The notes: generated by a model from the letters alone, not told the origin. A DNA stretch of 32,000 bases from Nostoc punctiforme PCC 73102 (GCF_000020025.1 NC_010628.1:5700001-5732000); one strand, 5' to 3'. Numbered from the stretch's first letter, positions 6,016 to 22,351 are shown. Translations and numbers: made by a program.

Positions 6016-8259
6016 ATGTATCGATTCCAGATCAGTGCATACACGCAAACAGGTGAATTCATCGGTCTGGTCGGTTCTACTCCAGAGTTGGGACTGTGGG
6101 AAATTAAAAAATGTATCCACCTACGTACAAGTGGCGATCGCTATCCTCTATGGTGGACAGATATTGAAATTCAAGAGTCAGGCGGTCAACACAGAGTTGA
6201 ATACAAGTACATCCGCTTCGATGCCAACGGCAATGCTCGATGGGAGAACTTACTAGATACAAACCGATGGATACTGATTGATTCTAAAGATCATTCCAGC
6301 ACAATTATTGTGGATGATGGTGCATTCGGTTATTTACAGCCTTACCCCTTTGGATACATTGAGAAGCCTGCTGTTAAAAAACCCCTGGATGAAGAGTCTA
6401 AAGGGTTAAAAATCGTAGTCATTGGCAGTTCCGTCGCATTAGGTCATAAAGCCTGGTTTTTGAAAGGTTGGGTCTGGTTGTTGGCACAGGCTTTAGAGCA
6501 AAAATATGGGCATCAACTGGTGAATGTATCGGAAGTGGGGGCCAATGTCAGCAGGACGATCGCTCGATTTCCCTGGTTTGTCACCCCAGAAAAACCAGAT
6601 ATTGTGATTATTGCCTTGTCTCTGGGCAACGAAGGGTTAGCCTACTGTTCCCCTCACGAACGGCGAGCAGTACAGCGACGGTTTGAAAGTGGCTTGCAGC
6701 AGTTGGTGAAAATGACGCGGGACATCGGAGCAATTCCGATTCTGGGAGGAGTCTATCCTAATGGCGACTATTCTCAGGAACATTACTGGCTGCTCCGAGA
6801 CACACACAACCGAATGCTAAGTTGGGATGTAGCTGTACTAGATTGGTTAGCAGCCGTGGATGATGGACAAGGACGATGGAAAGCGGGGACATCCTTCGAT
6901 CCGGCTCACCCGAACACAGTCGGTCATCGCCTTATGTATGAGCAGATCGACCAGCACTTATTCGACATCGACAAAGACGAATTGGCAAAAGAAAAACAAC
7001 GCTTCCAGCAACCGAATGAATTTGCCATCTACTTTGACAATGCTGGCTTTCATGTCTCTGTCTGTATCGAAGAGAAGCGTTTACGAATCGTTAATCCATC
7101 ACAATACAGTTACACGATCGCTCCCTATTGGCAAGAATTGCAGACTGCATTACAAAGTAGGGCTGGATTGATACCAGGTATCTACATTGCGAAGTCTGTC
7201 AAGCCAGGAACGCTCCCTTTCTTTGCCGTGCAAGAAGATGGTGCGATCGCAACTACAGTAAACATCCCCCCTGGCACAGACTTAGAATATAGCGCTGCCT
7301 TCAATCTCTTTTCGCCAAACAACTCACAAGTTTTGTTCTATGACGGGCATCTGGGGATTTTGCAAGCAGACGAACGCCACCTCTGGATAATCAACGAATC
7401 AGATAACGAGTACAATATCCAACCCATGTGGACAGAGGTTTGCAACGCCCTTAAAGCCATGCCATCGGGTGTTTATGAAGATCCGCTTCATCCCGACATT
7501 CCCTTTCGTACCATGATGATTGGCAAAGATGGGCTAGAAAGCCGGGTGAAAGCACCACCTAAGTCTGCGGTGTTTTTCCAATATAAATGTCAGTTATCGG
7601 ATATCAGCCGTGTGGCAATTCTTCCCCTTGGCGATCGCTGTGCCGTCCGTATGATGCTATATAAAATGGAGTACGATGGCCCCGCCTTTCCCTTTGATCT
7701 AACGCGCGCGACTAATATTGCAGATGTTGCAGATGCGATCGAAAACGGTTTTTATGATATGTGGAATCCTGCCTTGCTACACTACAGCCCCGATGCAGGG
7801 AGAATTTACCATAGTAAGTGGTCAGGTCTATCCTTTGCCCATGAAGTCGAGGAGGCAGACGATCCAAGCAACAATATGTCTCCCGTACATGAACGGATGC
7901 GGGTTCGATACACAGCACGTTCTGAAAGGTTTTGGTACGCATTGCAGCACTGCGATAAAGTACTTTTTGTTCGTACAGGAATTAGCGATCGCGGTGGTGT
8001 AATAGATTTAGTCAATAAGCTAGAAAAACAATGCCAGGGGAAGCCATTTCATCTCTTGCTTCTTTCTCCTCAAAGCGATGATGAGTTTTTAGACCTTCCC
8101 AATGTGCTGCACTACAATGTCGAGTTTAATCCCGATCGTATGTATGACGATTTGGGACACTGGATGTATTGCACAGAAGTCATGCGAGGAATTCTGGAAT
8201 CCCTTGGAGTGTCTAGTAAAAACCTCTTTTGGTGTCCGCCTAAAACACCGAAGGGGTGA
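6016..8259 (+). CDS. multidomain protein: CBM20 starch/glycogen-binding module, SGNH/GDSL hydrolase, duplicated unknown module, DUF1796 (putative papain-like cysteine peptidase)
   Basis: CBM20: GEFIGLVGSTPELGLWE...PLWW...VEYKYIRFDANGNARWE..NR. SGNH blocks: KIVVIGSSVALG, IALSLGNEG, DPAHPNTVGH. Internal duplication: LRIVNPSQYSYTIAPYWQELQTALQS versus LWIINESDNEYNIQPMWTEVCNALKA. DUF1796-like: ILPLGDRCAVRMMLYKMEYDGPAFPFDL. There is no signal peptide. Confidence 0.75.
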   Translation: MYRFQISAYTQTGEFIGLVGSTPELGLWEIKKCIHLRTSGDRYPLWWTDIEIQESGGQHRVEYKYIRFDANGNARWENLLDTNRWILIDSKDHSSTIIVDDGAFGYLQPYPFGYIEKPAVKKPLDEESKGLKIVVIGSSVALGHKAWFLKGWVWLLAQALEQKYGHQLVNVSEVGANVSRTIARFPWFVTPEKPDIVIIALSLGNEGLAYCSPHERRAVQRRFESGLQQLVKMTRDIGAIPILGGVYPNGDYSQEHYWLLRDTHNRMLSWDVAVLDWLAAVDDGQGRWKAGTSFDPAHPNTVGHRLMYEQIDQHLFDIDKDELAKEKQRFQQPNEFAIYFDNAGFHVSVCIEEKRLRIVNPSQYSYTIAPYWQELQTALQSRAGLIPGIYIAKSVKPGTLPFFAVQEDGAIATTVNIPPGTDLEYSAAFNLFSPNNSQVLFYDGHLGILQADERHLWIINESDNEYNIQPMWTEVCNALKAMPSGVYEDPLHPDIPFRTMMIGKDGLESRVKAPPKSAVFFQYKCQLSDISRVAILPLGDRCAVRMMLYKMEYDGPAFPFDLTRATNIADVADAIENGFYDMWNPALLHYSPDAGRIYHSKWSGLSFAHEVEEADDPSNNMSPVHERMRVRYTARSERFWYALQHCDKVLFVRTGISDRGGVIDLVNKLEKQCQGKPFHLLLLSPQSDDEFLDLPNVLHYNVEFNPDRMYDDLGHWMYCTEVMRGILESLGVSSKNLFWCPPKTPKG

Positions 8260-16594: not shown

Positions 16595-17164
16595 TTATTC
16601 AAAAACCACATCTTCGTAAAGTGATGCCATTGTTTCCTCAAAATCCACGCTGTTGAGTCGAAATGATTGATGTTCTGCTGTGTAGGATTGTAAAACCCAC
16701 AACCCTTGCTCATTGCGGCGAAAAGACTCGACTCGCTGACGTTTGGTATTAATTAAAACATATTCTTGCAGACTTTCCAGTGTTTGATAATCGGCAAATT
16801 TATCGCCCCGGTCAAAGGCTTCGGTAGAATTAGATAAAACTTCGACAATTAAACAGGGAAATCTTTTATAACCTGGCGTTTCTTGATCTCGTTGATCGCA
16901 AGTAACCATCACATCGGGATAATAAAAGCGATTCAGAGATTCAATTCGGGCTTTCATGTCAGCGATGTAAACACGACAACCAGAGCCGCGCACATGATTA
17001 CGGAGGAGAGATGCCAGGTTAAGAGCAATGGTAACGTGTGGATCAAGCGCTCCAGCCATTGCATAGATGTAGCCGTCGATATATTCATGCTTGATATTGC
17101 TCTGTTCCTCCATTTGGAGGTATTCTTCAGCAGTGAGGTAGTTTTGTTGGGGCGAGGCTATCAT
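16595..17164 (-). CDS. Uma2-family (DUF820) restriction-endonuclease-like protein
   Basis: 189 aa. LTAEEYLQMEEQSNIKHEYIDGYIYAMAG...PDVMV...LIVEVLS is the typical Uma2 pattern. Confidence 0.8.
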   Translation of the reverse strand: MIASPQQNYLTAEEYLQMEEQSNIKHEYIDGYIYAMAGALDPHVTIALNLASLLRNHVRGSGCRVYIADMKARIESLNRFYYPDVMVTCDQRDQETPGYKRFPCLIVEVLSNSTEAFDRGDKFADYQTLESLQEYVLINTKRQRVESFRRNEQGLWVLQSYTAEHQSFRLNSVDFEETMASLYEDVVFE

Positions 17165-17258
17165 ATTTTAAAGGTTTTATTGTGCCGATTTACTTGTGGC
17201 GATGCTTTAGGCGCAGTAGACTTTATAATCAGGTAAGGAACTTATGTAAGGAATCTGA

Positions 17259-17507
17259 ATGATGGCTAGTGCTACCATCAGCACTAAAGGACAAGTAACT
17301 ATTCCTAAAGAAATTAGAGATTATCTTAACCTTGATACAGGTAGTAAGGTTGATTTTGTCATTGATGAAAATGGAATAGTTAAATTAATTCCCTTGAATA
17401 TCTCTATCCAAAGTTTATCAGGGATTTTACACCGTCCGGGAATGAAAAGCGCAACTTTAGAAGAAATGGAAGCTGCAATTAAAGAAGGCTCAAGTGATTG
17501 GACTTGA
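17259..17507 (+). CDS. vapB: AbrB/MazE/SpoVT-type antitoxin (VapB-like)
   Basis: 82 aa. TISTKGQVTIPKEIRDYLNLDTGSKVDFVIDENG is a SpoVT-AbrB swapped-hairpin motif. It overlaps the start of a PIN remnant. Confidence 0.8.
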   Translation: MMASATISTKGQVTIPKEIRDYLNLDTGSKVDFVIDENGIVKLIPLNISIQSLSGILHRPGMKSATLEEMEAAIKEGSSDWT

Positions 17508-17610
17508 CACAAATATTTTAGTGCAATACTTGACAAAAGATGATGAAAAGCAGTGGGAGCAAGCTGCTAAAATTATCGACGGGGTAGAGCAATGTTTCAC
17601 AACCACATAA
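17494..17610 (+). pseudogene. vapC: truncated PIN-domain toxin (vapC remnant, 38 codons)
   Basis: A GTG at 17494 overlaps the vapB 3' end. The product VIGLDTNILVQYLTKDDEKQWEQAAKIIDGVEQCFTTT* has the PIN N-terminal signature (GLDTNILV.YL..DD). It stops after 38 aa, where a PIN domain needs about 130, and it stops exactly where the repeat flanking hicAB begins. Confidence 0.65.
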
Positions 17611-17662
17611 TAGCGTAGGCGTAGCCCGTCGTAGACATCGCTTGTCGATTTACGCTTTGTAG
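17596..17662. repeat. left copy of the direct repeat flanking hicAB (carries a 21-nt insertion)
   Basis: TTCACAACCACATAATAGCG[21-nt insert]ATCGCTTGTCGATTTACGCTTTGTAG aligns with 18147-18195 (TTCACAACTCATAATAGCGATCGCTTGTAGATTTACACTTATTTTCTAG). The insert splits the HIP1 octamer that is intact in the right copy (18163-18170). Confidence 0.75.
17613..17642. repeat. GC-rich 30-nt repeat (pair B, left arm)
   Basis: GCGTAGGCGTAGCCCGTCGTAGACATCGCT. The reverse complement of 18196-18225 matches 29 of 30 positions. Confidence 0.85.
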
Positions 17663-17857
17663 TTAAAAATTAGGTAATAAACCTGCTTGTTTACATATTT
17701 CATTAGCAGTAATACGATCAATGGTACGATGACGTTTTACAGGAAGAGTTTTTATCTCATTAGTATAAATTGAATGATTTCCTCCTTCCCTTAATAAATA
17801 AAAGCCATTTTGCTCTAAGTATTTAATTAGCTCTTTTCGCTTGACTGACACACTCAA
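17663..17857 (-). CDS. hicA: HicA-family mRNA interferase toxin
   Basis: 64 aa. KRKELIKYLEQNGFYLLREGGNHSIYTN is typical of HicA/YcfA. It overlaps the hicB stop by 4 nt. Confidence 0.85.
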   Translation of the reverse strand: MSVSVKRKELIKYLEQNGFYLLREGGNHSIYTNEIKTLPVKRHRTIDRITANEICKQAGLLPNF

Positions 17858-18072
17858 ACCTCTATAGGAATTTGTTCGAGCAAAGAACCGCCTGTGGGAA
17901 TTTCTTTATTTTGTTGACGATAGGCAAGAACCATTTCTTTGGTTGCATCTTGTAACATAGCTCTACATTCTTCTATGGTTTCTCCTTCTGTGATGACTTC
18001 TTGCCATTCAATAAGTTGTCCCATATATCCGCTATTAGTTTTTGTATATTTTGCAGTGTATGTAATTAACAT
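17854..18072 (-). CDS. hicB: HicB-family antitoxin (short form)
   Basis: I prefer the ATG at 18072 (MLITYTAKYTKTNSGYMGQLIEWQEVITEGETIEECRAMLQDATKEMV...). The 25 extra codons in the ORF track (start 18147) extend into the flanking repeat and look non-coding. Confidence 0.75.
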   Translation of the reverse strand: MLITYTAKYTKTNSGYMGQLIEWQEVITEGETIEECRAMLQDATKEMVLAYRQQNKEIPTGGSLLEQIPIEV

Positions 18073-18146
18073 TGCTATGTTTGTGAAGATAATTATATGA
18101 TTTATCGTAGCTGATTTTTTGTTGTGGGAGACATTGCTCTTCATCA

Positions 18147-18195
18147 TTCACAACTCATAATAGCGATCGCTTGTAGATTTACACTTATTTTCTAG
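18147..18195. repeat. right copy of the direct repeat flanking hicAB
   Basis: See 17596-17662. It contains an intact HIP1 at 18163-18170 and is followed immediately by the pair-B right arm. Confidence 0.75.
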
Positions 18196-18225: not shown

Positions 18226-18294
18226 CAGCTTTTGGCCTAATAATATACCAAAATAAATGCGTAAATTACTAAAATGAGTAAGCAAACTGGGGTT

Positions 18295-18550
18295 TGAGAA
18301 AGAAAAGCTGCTTTTGCTTGCGTAAAACACTAAAATAAGAAACTAAAAGCTGCTTTTGTTTGTAGAAAACACTAAAATGCGAGATTAAAAGCTGCTTTTG
18401 AAGAAGTAAAAGCTGCTTTCGTTTGTGGAAAACACCAAAATGCGAGATTAAAAGCTGCTTTTGGAGAAGTGAAAGCTGCTTTCGTTTGTGGAAAACATTA
18501 AAATGCGAGATTAAAAGCTGCTTTTGAGAAAGTAAAAGCTGCTTTTGCAT
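18295..18550. repeat. tandem array with a 63-bp period built from 21-nt modules around the near-palindromic core AAAAGCTGCTTTT
   Basis: The core occurs at 18303, 18345, 18387, 18408, 18450, 18471, 18513 and 18534, giving spacings of 42, 42, 21, 42, 21, 42 and 21. The inter-core segments resemble one another. Confidence 0.9.
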
Positions 18551-18677
18551 AAGTAATCAGGCATTTTTACTTAACTCAATATGAATTTCAGTCTAGGCGA
18601 CACCTTTCATTTGGAACGGTACGCGATCGCGATCGCGCTTTTTAGTTTGATCGCGGTAAGCTTTGCACAAAACTAGC

Positions 18678-21149
18678 TTATTCTTGATTTGGGGGGAGGC
18701 GATCGCGAAGACTTGCCAAATTTCTACGCACACTAACAGTATTAGGATGATCTGCACCTAACCGAGGCTCTAAAATATCTAATGCCTGCATATACAACGG
18801 TTCGGCTTCGCTGTATCTGCCTTGGGAGTAGTAGAGATACGCTAGGTTGTTGAGACTTTGTGCGGCATCTGGATGTTCTTCACCCAGCAGCTTGCACCTG
18901 AGTGCCAAAGCTTGGATGTAAAGGGGTTCGGCTTCGCTGTATCTGCCTTGGGAACGGTAGAGTGCCGCTAGGTTGTTGAGACTAGTTGCGACATCTGGAT
19001 GTTCTTCACCCAGCAGCTTGCGCCAGAGTGCCAAAGCTTGGATGTAAAGGGGTTCGGCTTCGCTGTATCTGCCTTGGGAGCCGTAGAGTGCCGCTAGGTT
19101 GTTGAGACTAAGTGCGACATCTGGATGTTCTTCACCCAGCAGCTTGCGCCAGAGTGCCAAAGCTTGGATGTAAATGGGTTCGGCTTCGCTGTATCTGCCT
19201 TGGGAGTCGTAGAGATACGCTAGGTTGTTGAGACTAGTTGCGACATCTGGATGTTCTTCACCCAGCAGCTTGCGCCTGAGTGCCAAAGCTTGGATGTAAA
19301 TGGGTTCGGCTTCGCTGTATCTGCCTTGGGAGTCGTAGAGATACGCTAGGTTGTTGAGACTAGTTGCGACATCTGGATGTTCTTCACCCAGCAGCTTGCG
19401 CCTGAGTGCCAAAGCTTGGATGTAAATGGGTTCGGCTTCGCTGTATCTGCCTTGGGAGTCGTAGAGATACGCTAGGTTGTTGAGACTAGTTGCGACATCT
19501 GGATGTTCTTCACCCAGCAGCTTGCGCCTGAGTGCCAAAGCTTGGATGTAAATGGGTTCGGCTTCGCTGTATCTGCCTTGGGAGTAGTAGAGTCCCGCTA
19601 GGTTGTTGAGACTAAGTGCGACATCTGGATGTTCTTCACCCAGCAGCTTGCACCTGAGTGCCAAAGCTTGGATGTAAAGGGGTTCGGCTTCGCTGTATCT
19701 GCCTTGGGAACGGTAGAGTGCCGCTAGGTTGTTGAGACTAGTTGCGACATCTGGATGTTCTTCACCCAGCAGCTTGCGCCTGAGTGCCAAAGCTTGGATA
19801 CAAAGAGGTTCAGCTTCGCTGTATCTGCCTTGGGAGTAGTAGAGATACGCTAGGTTGTTGAGACTAGTTGCGACATCTGGATGTTCTTCACCCAAGCGCT
19901 TTTTAGTGACTTCTAAACACTGCTCATACCAAGGTAAAGCTTGGCTATATAAACCTTGACCATTATAAAATCTAGCGTTGCCGATGAAAGGCCCAACTAA
20001 ATCATCATCGCTGACGTATTGAATGAGATGATTCGCTACTTCAGCTATATGAGGAATAGTGGGAGAAACGGCAGTGATTTGCTCAAGGGTAGACGATTCA
20101 GGAATATCTTGGGCAACTGCTACCATTACCCGACAAAAAGAAAGCTTTAATTCCTCCCCCTTATCTAAACTTGTAAGCTTATATTGAAAAAACTCCCGTA
20201 GCAGTGGATGCAGTTGATAAATTCCCTCACCTTTGCGCTGAACTAAATGCAGATTCAAAAAGCATTCGTCTCTAATTTCTTCTAAATCTTCGGTATCTTC
20301 TTCTGGTAAACACTGTTCCACCAACTTCCAAGGTATAGGTGCTGTGGCAAATAAACTCAATAAACAACCCAGTTGCTTATCGCTGTCCTCTAATTCTTGC
20401 CAACTCAACTCAAAAGCTGCTAACACACCTCGCTGTGCTGTCATGTCGGTTTCCGACTTAGATTTAGAGAGTGAACGCTCATCTATTCCCTTGTTCTTCA
20501 ACCGCCGCAACATCTCTGTTAAAGATAAATCTTGTTTCCGCGCCAGATAGCGCCCGACTAATTCCACACCTAAAGGTAAATATCCCAGCCATTTACATAA
20601 CTGATTTGCTAAAGCTAATTCTCGCTCAATTCGCTCTGGTGTTTCTTTGAGTAAAGACTTTAATAACTCCAGCGCCGCTTCTGGTTGCAGCACATCCAAA
20701 GATAACTTTGCAATGCGTCCCAACTTCTGGCGCGTAGTCATCAACACTTTAAACCGAGAAGATGACGACGGTAGATAAGGCTTAACTTGCTCGTAGTTGC
20801 TGACATCATCCAGCACCAGCAGCACCTCACCCTCACGCCAATGCCGCCAACAGTATTGCACTTGCGCGAGTAAATCAAAATCTTCTGGCGGCTTTAAATC
20901 AAGCTGCGTTCTGGCAAACTGCACAACTTGAATGCCCACATCCCCAGTTTTTGCAAGCAACCAGCAAAGCCCACCGTTGTATGTGTTGCGGTGCTGGATG
21001 GCATATTGCAGGGCGAGTTCTGTTTTACCAACTCCACCCATGCCAGAAATAGCTGCGATCGCAACTGGTTTATTATCCTGCATAAGTTGGTGAAGATTTT
21101 GCAATTCTTCTTCACGTCCGACAAATTCCACCACCCCACTCAAGGGCAA
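18678..21149 (-). CDS. NB-ARC STAND NTPase with C-terminal TPR array (NLR-like); the 5' end is undefined, see the in-frame TGA finding
   Basis: Walker A GMGGVGKTELA, Walker B VLLVLDDV, KVLMTTR, GYLPLGVELVG (GLPLA-like), then nine LGEEHPD...42-aa TPR units. The only start offered is a TTG at 21149. The frame stays open upstream as far as a TGA at 21210-21212. Confidence 0.9.
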   Translation of the reverse strand: MPLSGVVEFVGREEELQNLHQLMQDNKPVAIAAISGMGGVGKTELALQYAIQHRNTYNGGLCWLLAKTGDVGIQVVQFARTQLDLKPPEDFDLLAQVQYCWRHWREGEVLLVLDDVSNYEQVKPYLPSSSSRFKVLMTTRQKLGRIAKLSLDVLQPEAALELLKSLLKETPERIERELALANQLCKWLGYLPLGVELVGRYLARKQDLSLTEMLRRLKNKGIDERSLSKSKSETDMTAQRGVLAAFELSWQELEDSDKQLGCLLSLFATAPIPWKLVEQCLPEEDTEDLEEIRDECFLNLHLVQRKGEGIYQLHPLLREFFQYKLTSLDKGEELKLSFCRVMVAVAQDIPESSTLEQITAVSPTIPHIAEVANHLIQYVSDDDLVGPFIGNARFYNGQGLYSQALPWYEQCLEVTKKRLGEEHPDVATSLNNLAYLYYSQGRYSEAEPLCIQALALRRKLLGEEHPDVATSLNNLAALYRSQGRYSEAEPLYIQALALRCKLLGEEHPDVALSLNNLAGLYYSQGRYSEAEPIYIQALALRRKLLGEEHPDVATSLNNLAYLYDSQGRYSEAEPIYIQALALRRKLLGEEHPDVATSLNNLAYLYDSQGRYSEAEPIYIQALALRRKLLGEEHPDVATSLNNLAYLYDSQGRYSEAEPIYIQALALWRKLLGEEHPDVALSLNNLAALYGSQGRYSEAEPLYIQALALWRKLLGEEHPDVATSLNNLAALYRSQGRYSEAEPLYIQALALRCKLLGEEHPDAAQSLNNLAYLYYSQGRYSEAEPLYMQALDILEPRLGADHPNTVSVRRNLASLRDRLPPNQE
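18762..19895 (-). repeat. nine tandem 126-bp (42-codon) near-identical TPR-coding units
   Basis: CATCTGGATGTTCTTCACCC recurs at 18866, 18992, 19118, 19244, 19370, 19496, 19622, 19748 and 19874, exactly 126 bp apart. The central units look identical at nucleotide level by eye. Confidence 0.95.
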
Positions 21150-21209
21150 ATTTGGCGGTATTTCAGTAGAGGGATTTGACTTTGCCCGTTCCCGTTCGAG
21201 CGACTGTAG

Positions 21210-21722
21210 TCAATCAGGAGAATTCTGATGGTAATTGATAGTAATTAGGCTATTGTCTACGCCTTGAAAGGTGGGAGCTTTACTATCAATACTTTGAAAA
21301 CCTTGGCCACCGTAAACATTCTGGACATTTTTACCTTGAACTTTGTCAATATTAATTTCCTGGTGAATTTCTTTAGCAAGGCTTTGAACTTCTTCGCCAA
21401 ATTGGGGATAGCTGTCCATTTCGACCTGTAGGTAAGCTGCAACAAAGTTTAAATCTTCCTTAGAACCTTGTTCAGCCTTTGTTAAGGCTTCTTGTACTTT
21501 CGGTTTACCCTTGAACTGATCCCAAATTTTTTGGCGTAGCAGTTTCAACTTGTCTAAAGTACTTTCGGTTATCTTCTCTACGGTTTTTTCTATAGCCTTA
21601 GTGATTACCAAAGTTGCGATCGCAGCTGCTGTCAGTGATACTGGCTCCATAACTTTGCCAAAATATAAGAGATTTTGTTTAGAGGATGTTTTAAAAGAAT
21701 CTTTTATACTCATAGTTAGCAA
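21210..21722 (-). CDS. helical N-terminal domain ORF in frame with the downstream NB-ARC ORF (candidate effector/adaptor domain)
   Basis: 170 aa. The likely true start is the ATG at 21650 (MEPVSLTAAAIATLVITKAIEKTVEKI). The tail is Q/N/G-rich (VQGKNVQNVYGGQGFQSIDSKAPTFQGVDNSLITINY). It ends at a TGA that is in frame with ORF 18678-21149. Confidence 0.6.
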   Translation of the reverse strand: MLTMSIKDSFKTSSKQNLLYFGKVMEPVSLTAAAIATLVITKAIEKTVEKITESTLDKLKLLRQKIWDQFKGKPKVQEALTKAEQGSKEDLNFVAAYLQVEMDSYPQFGEEVQSLAKEIHQEINIDKVQGKNVQNVYGGQGFQSIDSKAPTFQGVDNSLITINYHQNSPD

Positions 21723-21888: not shown

Positions 21889-21931
21889 ATAAAAAAATTA
21901 AGGGACGACTTCTATCGGTGAAATCGCCCCT
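21889..21931 (-). terminator. candidate rho-independent terminator of the Tudor-like gene
   Basis: On the minus strand, AGGGGCGA...TCGTCCCT forms a stem with 7 of 8 bases paired plus an inner TTC/GAA pairing. TAATTTTTTT follows. It begins 28 nt after the stop at 21959. Confidence 0.45.
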
Positions 21932-21958
21932 CTCAACTTATAAATAGTGAAATATACT

Positions 21959-22351
21959 CTATCTGCTTACTCTCGAAGGTTCAACCCACTCATCCCAAGA
22001 GCTATCATAGCCATCATAAGTAATTTTATAAAGATCGTTACTAACTTCTAAAACCTGCCCTTTATACCATTTACGTTTCCACAAAATTCTCACTGCATCT
22101 CCAACTTCAAATGATGCTCGGAAGCGTTCAGCACCAACCCATTCATTCCAAGAACTATCATAACCTTCATAAGTAATATAGCAATTATCATTATTATTAA
22201 CCTTAAGTACCGTTGCTGGATACCATTTTTCCTTCCAAAGAACCTCAGCCTTTTGTCCCACAGAACAGGGTGAAGCAGCTAAAGCACCGGGAATCAATGT
22301 CCCTACCCAAGTTGCCATGAAGATGGCACCAAACAATACTTTATTTTTCAT
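21959..22351 (-). CDS. secreted protein with two tandem Tudor/Agenet/SH3-like repeats
   Basis: 130 aa. Signal peptide: MKNKVLFGAIFMATWVGTLIPGALA. Two ~50-aa repeats follow: GQKAEVLWKEKWYPATVLKV..NCYITYEGYDSSWNEWVGAERF and GDAVRILWKRKWYKGQVLEV..LYKITYDGYDSSWDEWVEPSRV. Confidence 0.6.
   Translation of the reverse strand: MKNKVLFGAIFMATWVGTLIPGALAASPCSVGQKAEVLWKEKWYPATVLKVNNNDNCYITYEGYDSSWNEWVGAERFRASFEVGDAVRILWKRKWYKGQVLEVSNDLYKITYDGYDSSWDEWVEPSRVSR

Follow-up and report, generated by a model that had tools for sequence, protein, structure and literature searches.

When a single stop codon interrupts an otherwise intact reading frame of 3 kb, does it mark a gene in decay, the boundary between two genes, or a point at which translation may go on? 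That question is raised by a locus of Nostoc punctiforme PCC 73102 lying within the 32,000-nucleotide (nt) stretch NC_010628.1:5700001–5732000, whose entire length is referred to here as the window. On its minus strand the interval from 21722 to 18678 forms one frame with a single internal stop, the TGA at 21212–21210. Before that stop lies a small gene, Npun_R4604, whose product we class on its homology as a Bell-type effector; beyond it, 843 further codons in the same frame encode a protein with an NB-ARC domain and tetratricopeptide repeats (TPR), resembling the nucleotide-binding leucine-rich-repeat receptors (NLR). The answer that we consider probable, on comparative evidence, is that this one transcription unit yields two proteins through programmed readthrough of the UGA.

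A preliminary description of the locus, made from the sequence alone, had recognized the single frame, the lone TGA followed by C, and the TTG at 21149 as the sole canonical start available to a downstream open reading frame (ORF) of 823 amino acids (aa), and this layout was confirmed. The 170-aa ORF that it had placed upstream does end at the TGA, but represents a mechanical reading from a TTG at 21722; since the homologs begin with MEP..., the true start of the small gene is the ATG at 21650, which assignment gives a protein of 146 aa and would give a readthrough product of 146 + 1 + 843 = 990 aa. The 20 codons right after the TGA (LQSLERERAKSNPSTEIPPN) lead into the 823-aa ORF, and the first ATG of the downstream frame in the window stands 13 codons ahead of the P-loop GMGGVGKT. 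The features of the locus, in the order of translation, are the following (in parentheses, the basis of each assignment):

21336..21650, minus strand: predicted Bell-type all-helical effector domain, aa 1 to ~105 of Npun_R4604 (ATG 21650 to TGA 21212–21210), starting MEPVSLTAAAIATLVITKAIE, with a hydrophobic first helix (homologs, HHalign, AlphaFold2 [AF2])
21213..21335, minus strand: Q/N/G-rich C-terminal tail …GKNVQNVYGGQGFQSIDSKAPTFQGVDNSLITINYHQNSPD, candidate amyloid signalling motif resembling the bacterial amyloid signalling sequences (BASS) (alignment, predicted disorder, position)
21210..21212, minus strand: in-frame UGA stop, candidate recoding site, with the +4 base C at 21209 (conservation across loci)
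21202..21209, minus strand: 8-nt spacer CUACAGUC from the stop to the pseudoknot (free of indels in the alignments)
21171..21201, minus strand: compact H-type pseudoknot (comparative pairing, covariation)
21126..21209, minus strand: 28-codon linker LQSLERERAKSNPSTEIPPNLPLSGVVE, open in frame 0, with an (E/G)IPQNLP motif (linker comparison)
20439..21095, minus strand: NB-ARC NTPase domain, with FVGR at 21125–21114 and the P-loop GMGGVGKT at 21044–21021 (Pfam PF00931)
18750..19973, minus strand: TPR sensor array (Pfam TPR_10/TPR_12, Tandem Repeats Finder)
18678..18680, minus strand: TAA stop closing the long frame (sequence)

The stop codon and the RNA that follows it

The stop was surveyed at 81 loci, namely the window and 80 genomic loci picked solely by similarity to the small protein. 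At 67 of these the small gene closes with TGA and its frame stays open for at least 90 codons more, with C in the +4 position at 66 of those 67 sites, while neither the homolog searches nor the profile searches returned any variant with a sense codon in the place of the stop. The in-frame TGA-C spans Nostocales, Acaryochloris and other cyanobacteria, and persists among paralogous subfamilies with only ~35% identity and with unlike C-terminal Q/N/G motifs. As for the background in the same DNA, 324 long ORFs ended in TAA (189), TAG (73) or TGA (62), TGAC being the rarest stop context of all (6/324, or 1.9%), against which the recurrence of TGA-C at the surveyed loci is far greater than chance would allow. 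When 125 distinct sites were pooled, 13 different amino acids were seen before the stop, and the UGA was followed by CUA or CUG at 117; both UGA-C and UGA-CUA are leaky contexts (PMC7026636).

A profile search among 1.84 billion representatives gathered 650 family clusters, mostly of 120–155 aa, and a junction-spanning query against 5.8 billion protein clusters found no protein covering both sides. One apparent fusion with Trp at the junction (P0093) was discarded, since the gene call had applied genetic code 4 to a genuine TGA-C. That sequence originates from the gene call of a metagenome assembly in ENA (L081, 917–919) in which the contig was apparently called with code 4, and such calls can pass for true fusions in protein databases.

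The preliminary description had offered three readings of the interrupted frame. A freshly inactivated all-in-one NLR is refuted by the conservation of the stop, the +4 C and the frame across cyanobacteria and across the subfamilies of about 35% identity; a snapshot of fission into an effector gene and a sensor gene finds no support if a passing state is meant, since the arrangement is stable and selected for. The comparative evidence instead favours the third reading, a cell-death or defence protein controlled by readthrough, which possibility is strengthened by the pseudoknot that begins 8 nt after the stop.

The nucleotides following the stop are conserved beyond the needs of the linker peptide, their consensus being TGA CTR CAG TCG CCC GAA NGG GAA CGG GYA AAG TTA AAT CCC. 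For the comparison of structures we used alignment A2, comprising 66 distinct sequences, and alignment A3, the set obtained from Joint Genome Institute (JGI) metagenome contigs through one scan with the pattern TGACYNNAGNCRYYNGNNNNGGAACNGRYAAAG, which fixes TGAC and part of stem 1 and matched 66 contigs. In the 121 rows of A2 and A3 together there is no indel from the TGA to stem 1 (S1); the spacer has the consensus CU[A/G]NAGUC, and the H-type pseudoknot starts exactly 8 nt past the stop. In the window S1 pairs 21201–21197 (GCUCG) with 21188–21184 (CGGGC)—the consensus being GCCCG with CGGGC—and stem 2 (S2) pairs 21193–21190 (GGGA, within the S1 loop) with 21174–21171 (UCCC), leaving a loop 1 (L1) of 3 nt, a junction of 1 nt, and an A-rich loop 3 (L3) of 9 nt (21183–21175).

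In A2, 92% of the cells are paired and compensatory changes occur in 6 of the 9 base pairs. The cells with double changes number 28, against 9.5 in shuffled alignments (0 of 500 shuffles reached the observed value), and shifting the pairing partners by 1–3 columns lowers the pairing to 21–56%. In A3 the S1 cells are 100% paired, with CG30/UA25 at one pair and CG36/UG9/GC5/UA5 at another, while S2, whose 3' arm was free in the search pattern, contains a variable pair, 26–48, occupied by GC37/GU6/CG5/AU2. Some of these compensatory changes alter the protein, as when CCC/GCA (Pro..Ala) becomes TCC/ACA (Ser..Thr), and others pair a silent change with the replacement of Arg by Gln. Within the codons of the pseudoknot, moreover, the third positions vary less than the first and second, the reverse of a coding signature; only 3' of the pseudoknot do third positions again become the most variable. 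The protein-altering compensations and the constrained third positions both point to selection on the RNA.

A covariance model of the element gave 68 matches in 898 kb, all at such junctions and none elsewhere, and neither that model nor a fuzzy-consensus scan detected extra copies in the rest of the window and the loci. Rfam, searched across the junction in evalue mode, returned nothing at E ≤ 10 other than an irrelevant opposite-strand match to the long non-coding RNA H19_3 (E 8.1).

The linker, its start codons and the competing explanations

Among the 125 pooled sites, at least 100 open codons follow the stop, or the contig ends first, in 118, and 94 sites have a recognizable FVGR motif that delimits the linker. 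From the TGA to FVGR, stops are found in frame 0 in 0 of the 94 linkers, as against 87 in frame +1 and 76 in frame +2; the linkers measure 23, 24, 25, 28, 30, 31, 34 or 40 codons and thus differ by whole codons. Frameshifting by −1 or +1 was considered and rejected, as there is no conserved slippery sequence—the upstream codons vary—and most linkers are closed by stops in frames +1 and +2.

The alternative to programmed readthrough that best withstands these data, improbable though we consider it, is translational coupling: ribosomes would terminate at the UGA and restart, or initiate de novo, at a weak or non-canonical start within the linker (TTG 21149 in the window; GTG, TTG, ATT or ATC elsewhere), with no fusion being made, and the pseudoknot would tether or pause the ribosome in favour of the restart. 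Cyanobacterial genes often lack Shine–Dalgarno sequences, and 51 of the 94 linkers offer, ahead of FVGR, a GTG or TTG at which separate initiation could take place. The annotation pipelines, for their part, call two genes, and Bell and NLR genes are normally separate, often overlapping or abutting (Dyrka et al., 2020). Nevertheless, the remaining 43 linkers have no ATG, GTG or TTG before FVGR, the first ATG there being the Met inside the P-loop, and a canonical start falls within the first 12 linker codons in only 2 of 62. The TTG of the window, codon 21, corresponds in 40 orthologs to TTG (24), TTA (11) or other codons (5); the position is therefore kept as Leu and not as a start. Furthermore, this TTG falls in the middle of (E/G)IPQNLP, a motif that in classical NLR relatives lies inside the translated N-terminus, and both the conserved GIPQNLP and the third-position variability are located upstream of any start. 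Nor would restarting at a variable downstream codon require a frame 0 that is open in 94 of 94 linkers with indels of whole codons, and the NLR so produced would lack an amyloid motif for addressing the effector. With respect to the two-gene organization that the preliminary description had set against its single-frame reading, the outcome is divided: the orthologs do keep the stop consistently, yet a proper start for the NB-ARC gene is not provided.

We regard as distinctly unlikely a role confined to the RNA, in which the balance of effector and sensor mRNA would be set by the pseudoknot through processing, stability or attenuation, and the NLR frame would be a relic of an ancestral fusion. 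The conservation of the element at the RNA level would agree with such a role, as would the result of a site scan, which found no promoter-like or terminator-like site between the two ORFs on the coding strand; the proposal nevertheless leaves unexplained the invariant TGA-C, the fixed 8-nt distance, the missing start codons, and the complete lack of frame-0 stops together with whole-codon indels in a linker of 23–40 codons, and no U-tract follows the hairpin in the window. Insertion of selenocysteine is a very remote prospect: an in-frame UGA closely trailed by a conserved RNA structure is what such a mechanism would call for, but the structure is an H-type pseudoknot and not a hairpin like that of a selenocysteine insertion sequence (SECIS), to which Rfam gave no match; the site belongs to a disordered linker and not to a redox centre; neither a Cys codon nor any other sense codon occupies the position in any homolog; and the surveyed cyanobacteria that carry selD are described as not decoding selenocysteine (PMC1273633). 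Finally, a lone in-frame stop in an otherwise intact 3-kb frame is the usual signature of a nonsense mutation, but a recent pseudogene or a sequencing error at 21210–21212 is excluded by the recurrence of the same stop, with its context and structure conserved, at no fewer than 125 distinct sites in independent genomes, plasmids and metagenomes.

Several observations weigh against programmed readthrough, or against the generality of its signal, and need to be set beside the foregoing. Many of the sequences are closely related, so that the counts overstate the number of independent events, and the 66 metagenome sites were chosen by a pattern in which TGAC and part of S1 were already fixed. The pseudoknot is small (5 + 4 base pairs), its copy in the window has one U-G pair in S1, and the single-sequence folding energy of that copy is unexceptional (z −0.9, by a method that cannot represent a pseudoknot), the structural support therefore being comparative. 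The loci L061, L063, L065, L071, L073, L074 and L078 keep the in-frame TGA-C with a 9-nt deletion that removes the canonical pseudoknot; L052 and L079 are without a pseudoknot; and L055 retains the pseudoknot behind a TAA-C instead of a TGA. To these points must be added the 51 linkers with a potential start, cited above, and the circumstance that pseudoknot-stimulated readthrough on bacterial ribosomes has not, as far as we know, been demonstrated.

The effector, the sensor and the exchange of modules

The 146-aa sequence, searched by word index against the 5.8 billion protein clusters, retrieved 84 homologs, every one of them a stand-alone protein of 92–167 aa, from Nostoc, Nodularia, Anabaena, Calothrix, Tolypothrix, Scytonema, Gloeotrichia, Brasilonema, Kastovskya, Dapis, Myxosarcina and other genera. 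In 30 aligned homologs M1, E2 and P3 are nearly invariant; Npun_R4604 itself begins with MEPVS followed by a hydrophobic helix, and a "MEPIS" signature, with an acidic residue at position 2–3, has been described in Bell, Bab and Avast2 and shown to matter for function (Ibarlosa et al., 2024, bioRxiv 10.1101/2024.11.07.622273). The 146 aa of the small protein compare with ~120–140 aa for Bell effectors in general. The preliminary description had likened this N-terminal domain to the HeLo and Bell domains. The homology to Bell was borne out, in that the family profile matched RCJ33357.1—the protein of locus L074, and the Nostoc Bell example in Figure S1 of Dyrka et al. (2020)—with an HHalign probability of 98.3% and an E of 1.4e-14. 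The small protein had no significant match among solved structures, and fold-level kinship to HeLo/MLKL is therefore not established. The AF2 model is all-helical at residues 8–111, with a predicted local distance difference test score (pLDDT) of about 88 for residues 30–100. From these comparisons the small protein is a Bell-type effector, with membrane targeting and cell death as its predicted activities.

The Q/N/G-rich tail GKNVQNVYGGQGFQSIDSKAPTFQGVDNSLITINY is conserved in the family alignment, is predicted to be disordered (pLDDT <50), and occupies the position of the BASS motifs, about 25 aa long, in Bell proteins (Dyrka et al., 2020), its composition and position making it a candidate amyloid signalling motif. 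The supplements of that study contained neither the locus nor the tail sequence, and supplied no number in the BASS1–10 series. Pfam, NCBIfam and PADLOC gave only noise for the small protein, and no homolog of it was found in phage genomes. The search for a known defence system likewise ended without a named one: in PADLOC-DB 2.0 the small protein has no match and the NLR matches generic TPR and candidate models only.

The downstream frame contains an NB-ARC domain (Pfam PF00931, E 2.7e-17, residues 39–257 of the 843 codons) with its P-loop and, behind it, a repeat sensor domain, as in NLR-like signal transduction ATPases with numerous domains (STAND). The TPR array (TPR_10, E 1.5e-154; TPR_12, E 1.8e-138; about 10 repeats) consists at the DNA level of 8.7 tandem copies of a 126-nt unit with 94% matches, at 18799–19894 according to Tandem Repeats Finder. 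Immediately after the TGA the frame reads LQSLERERAKSNPSTEIPPNLPLSGVVEFVGR, and the NLR contains no second copy of the tail motif of the effector. Assignment to the TPR proteins of the FxSxx-COOH system (NCBIfam NF040586) was rejected: the score of 348 surpasses the cut-off of 300 bits, yet the match is confined to the repeats, the best matched stretch being residues 415–664 against model positions 482–731, and does not indicate membership.

What the UGA and pseudoknot join varies widely. In the metagenome copies the TGA closes a substantial upstream ORF in all but one degenerate copy (L138), and frame 0 is open downstream in nearly all. Among the upstream modules are many Bell subfamilies, whose N-termini read MEP...AIA... 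and whose C-terminal motifs fall into at least 9 types, as well as alpha/beta-hydrolase effectors (Abhydrolase_6/DUF676/PGAP1); among the downstream ones are several NB-ARC–TPR types, NACHT proteins, and one protein in which an NB-ARC precedes a terminal phycobilisome-protein domain. In this last protein (L119, 4669–6654, minus strand) the NB-ARC is followed by DUF7779 and, at the C-terminus, by the phycobilisome-protein domain (PF00502, E 1.9e-36), without TPR repeats, that terminal domain being an unusual sensor or decoy module. The arrangement is also carried by the conjugative plasmids pCC7120gamma of Nostoc/Anabaena sp. PCC 7120 and pREB8 of Acaryochloris marina, where RefSeq/PGAP starts the NLR at an ATT (L148, 4361–4427) and at an ATC (L149, 4343–4496), respectively; such starts seem to reflect, in the annotation, the lack of a start codon in the frame itself. 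The homologous pair on pCC7120gamma is WP_044520337.1 / WP_044520336.1. The start annotated in Acaryochloris lies only 8 residues ahead of the P-loop, and in the PCC 7120 copy S2 appears shifted (GGAGA with UUUCC), with a longer L3.

The relatives that end in other stops provide natural controls. Those closing with TAG or TAA at L049, L053, L056, L057, L059 and L068 are textbook Bell/BASS–NLR pairs: their NLR may stand in whichever frame, starts from an ATG of its own, and repeats the C-terminal motif of the effector, as in ...MTQINYGGTNYQTRTG...* followed by MSQINYDGTNYQVNPG... in one such pair. The second motif copy on the NLR is present in L049, L053, L056 and L059, and the pseudoknot is absent from 13 of 13 relatives with an out-of-frame TAG or TAA stop. 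Two further relatives, P0204 and P0209, are uninterrupted Bell–motif–NB-ARC–TPR proteins that lack the ERERxKLNPP segment by which the pseudoknot is encoded; their existence indicates that the fusion architecture is viable. The in-frame UGA with its pseudoknot is a third solution, beside the two-gene pairs and the all-in-one fusions.

In the subfamily of seven loci with the 9-nt deletion, to which RCJ33357.1 belongs (junction at about 6376–6440, and at 1254–1316 in L078), an alternative bulged hairpin, GUCGCCC-CAAG-GGG-AAU-CGAU, may be used instead, as suggested by RNAalifold on sequences too alike for covariation. L055 (~6385) and L060 (~6391) belong to another STAND family, with a P-loop of the GVVAAGGFGKS type, and show the same joint with different stems and a shift of 1 nt; L060 has a TGA-G, with a GTG directly after it. 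Two copies are in decay: in L043 (6001–6400; Nostoc sp. C117) the Bell gene is cut at 71 aa and runs out of frame into TPR repeats, which damage looks like a large deletion, and in L022 (6001–6250) the gene is truncated at 82 aa. As a further instance of shuffling of the Bell effector/motif module, P0087 and P0114 combine a Bell domain and a NIQNIYGGQGFQ-type motif with a TIR domain, fused directly or through a long uncharacterized region, in proteins without an NLR.

With regard to the surroundings in the window, a strong terminator-like hairpin (13 pairs and a T-run) lies on the minus strand at 21900–21932, after an upstream Tudor/Agenet-like gene (21959–22351); a separate promoter for the Bell–NLR unit is therefore probable in the interval from 21900 to 21650. 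Beyond the NLR stop, at 18622–18637, two overlapping HIP1 palindromes (CGCGATCGCGATCGCG) scored as a terminator-like hairpin on the plus strand only. Farther 3', at 18269–18556, there is a 63-nt tandem repeat (2.3 copies, 92% matches, AAAAGCTGCTTTT-type units) that yields a repetitive 93-aa ORF on the minus strand (18269–18550; QKQLLISHF...). A similar repeat (SSFYFLKS...) breaks into and truncates the Bell gene of L062, which insertion suggests a dispersed Nostoc repeat able to disrupt Bell–NLR loci. No tRNA genes were found in the window. A small cluster of toxin–antitoxin-type genes adjoins the NLR at 16595–18147:

17854-18147: UPF0150/HicB-like gene
17663-17857: HicA toxin
17259-17507, plus strand: MazE/AbrB-type antitoxin
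16595-17164: Uma2-family endonuclease

A proposed mechanism and its relation to known systems

Under programmed readthrough, most ribosomes would stop at the UGA-C (21212–21210) and release the 146-aa Bell-type effector, predicted to target membranes and endowed with its amyloid-type Q/N/G-rich tail. Some would decode the UGA in frame, probably by means of the near-cognate tRNA-Trp aided by the weak UGA-C and by the pseudoknot at the mRNA entry channel, and so produce the 990-aa Bell–tail–linker–NB-ARC–TPR protein. The peptide across the junction would be APTFQGVDNSLITINYHQNSPD-X-LQSLER, with Trp expected as X, the likeliest residue at a read-through UGA as in Escherichia coli and Salmonella (PMC7918605). 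Since this decoding would be in frame, the N-terminus of the sensor would be an exact copy of the effector and of its signalling motif. Recognition of a ligand might then lead to oligomerization through the NB-ARC and TPR domains, by which the N-terminal tails would be brought together; an amyloid fold nucleated by these tails would template the pool of free effector, and the templated effector would free its hydrophobic first helix into the membrane, with cell death (abortive infection) as the predicted outcome. The level of sensor may depend on the efficiency of termination, that is, on the activity of release factor 2 (RF2), and hence on the translational state of the cell.

Programmed readthrough is, to our knowledge, well documented in viruses and eukaryotes and rare in cellular bacterial genes, and we know of none among the latter that depends on a pseudoknot. 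Going beyond the locus of N. punctiforme, we are inclined, with some reserve, to regard the UGA-C and compact pseudoknot as a widespread and modular cyanobacterial readthrough signal, the first to depend on a pseudoknot in cellular bacterial genes, which signal would allow a free effector and an NLR carrying the effector with its amyloid motif to be encoded together and would serve as a universal joint for interchangeable modules. The literature searched on Bell/NLR systems and on cyanobacterial NLRs yielded no account of readthrough, of in-frame stops or of a pseudoknot; Dyrka et al. (2020) and Ibarlosa et al. (2024) make no mention of stop codons or readthrough, and a general survey of prokaryotic in-frame stops does not mention cyanobacteria, NTPases or pseudoknots (PMC7918605). 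If the readthrough is real, the element would represent a new class of recoding signal in bacteria and an architecture intermediate between "two genes, two motif copies" and "all-in-one." It would also explain how many cyanobacterial Bell and other effector genes could come under the control of neighbouring NLRs that have no matching amyloid motif, would correct the annotation of well over 100 NLR genes with arbitrary TTG, ATT or ATC starts or truncated N-termini, and would make available a 45-nt cassette as a compact tool for setting the ratio of two products in bacteria.

Regarding recoding signals already known, small viral pseudoknots of the luteovirus type resemble the cassette in having a 5-bp GC-rich S1, a short L1, a 4-bp S2 and an A-rich L3. 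The gag-pol readthrough signal of murine leukaemia virus (MuLV), whose pseudoknot follows after an 8-nt spacer (PMC7026636), shares with the present element the leaky stop, the spacer length, the H-type pseudoknot, and the two nested products of one frame; here, in contrast, the gene is a bacterial one, chromosomal or plasmid-borne, the stop is UGA and not UAG, the stems are much shorter, and there is no sequence similarity. The UGA readthrough of the Q-beta coat/A1 gene, the tau/gamma products of dnaX, and the +1 shift of prfB at CUU UGA C are alike in their weak UGA(-C) and in the production of two proteins in a set ratio, and dnaX and the insertion sequence (IS) elements also make use of downstream structures; Q-beta, however, has no pseudoknot, dnaX and prfB change frame, and none of these examples involves an immune sensor.

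Among the immune systems, the Bell/BASS–NLR pairs of filamentous bacteria (Dyrka et al., 2020, bioRxiv 10.1101/2020.01.06.895854) and the Bab/Agp system of E. coli (Ibarlosa et al., 2024) have a similar small helical effector, with a hydrophobic N-terminal helix of the MEP type and a Q/N/G-rich tail, its gene lying, as here, directly ahead of a collinear gene for an NB-ARC/TPR NLR. The sensor gene of the classical pairs nevertheless needs a separately encoded second copy of the motif, whereas here the NLR frame has neither its own start nor a second motif copy and continues in frame across the UGA-C and pseudoknot. The all-in-one NLRs with an N-terminal Bell or "MEPIS" domain (Avs2/Avast2, and the cyanobacterial Bell–NB-ARC–TPR proteins) have the same architecture as the predicted readthrough product, from which they differ in that the fusion would here be a minor product, with the effector also made alone, and in that those relatives lack the ERERxKLNPP linker encoding the pseudoknot. 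The logic that we propose is also that of the HET-S/NWD2 system of Podospora anserina, where a pore-forming effector takes on its amyloid fold from the N-terminus of an NLR as template; but whereas the fungus employs two genes and two copies of the motif, the cyanobacterial locus would share one copy between effector and sensor through recoding.

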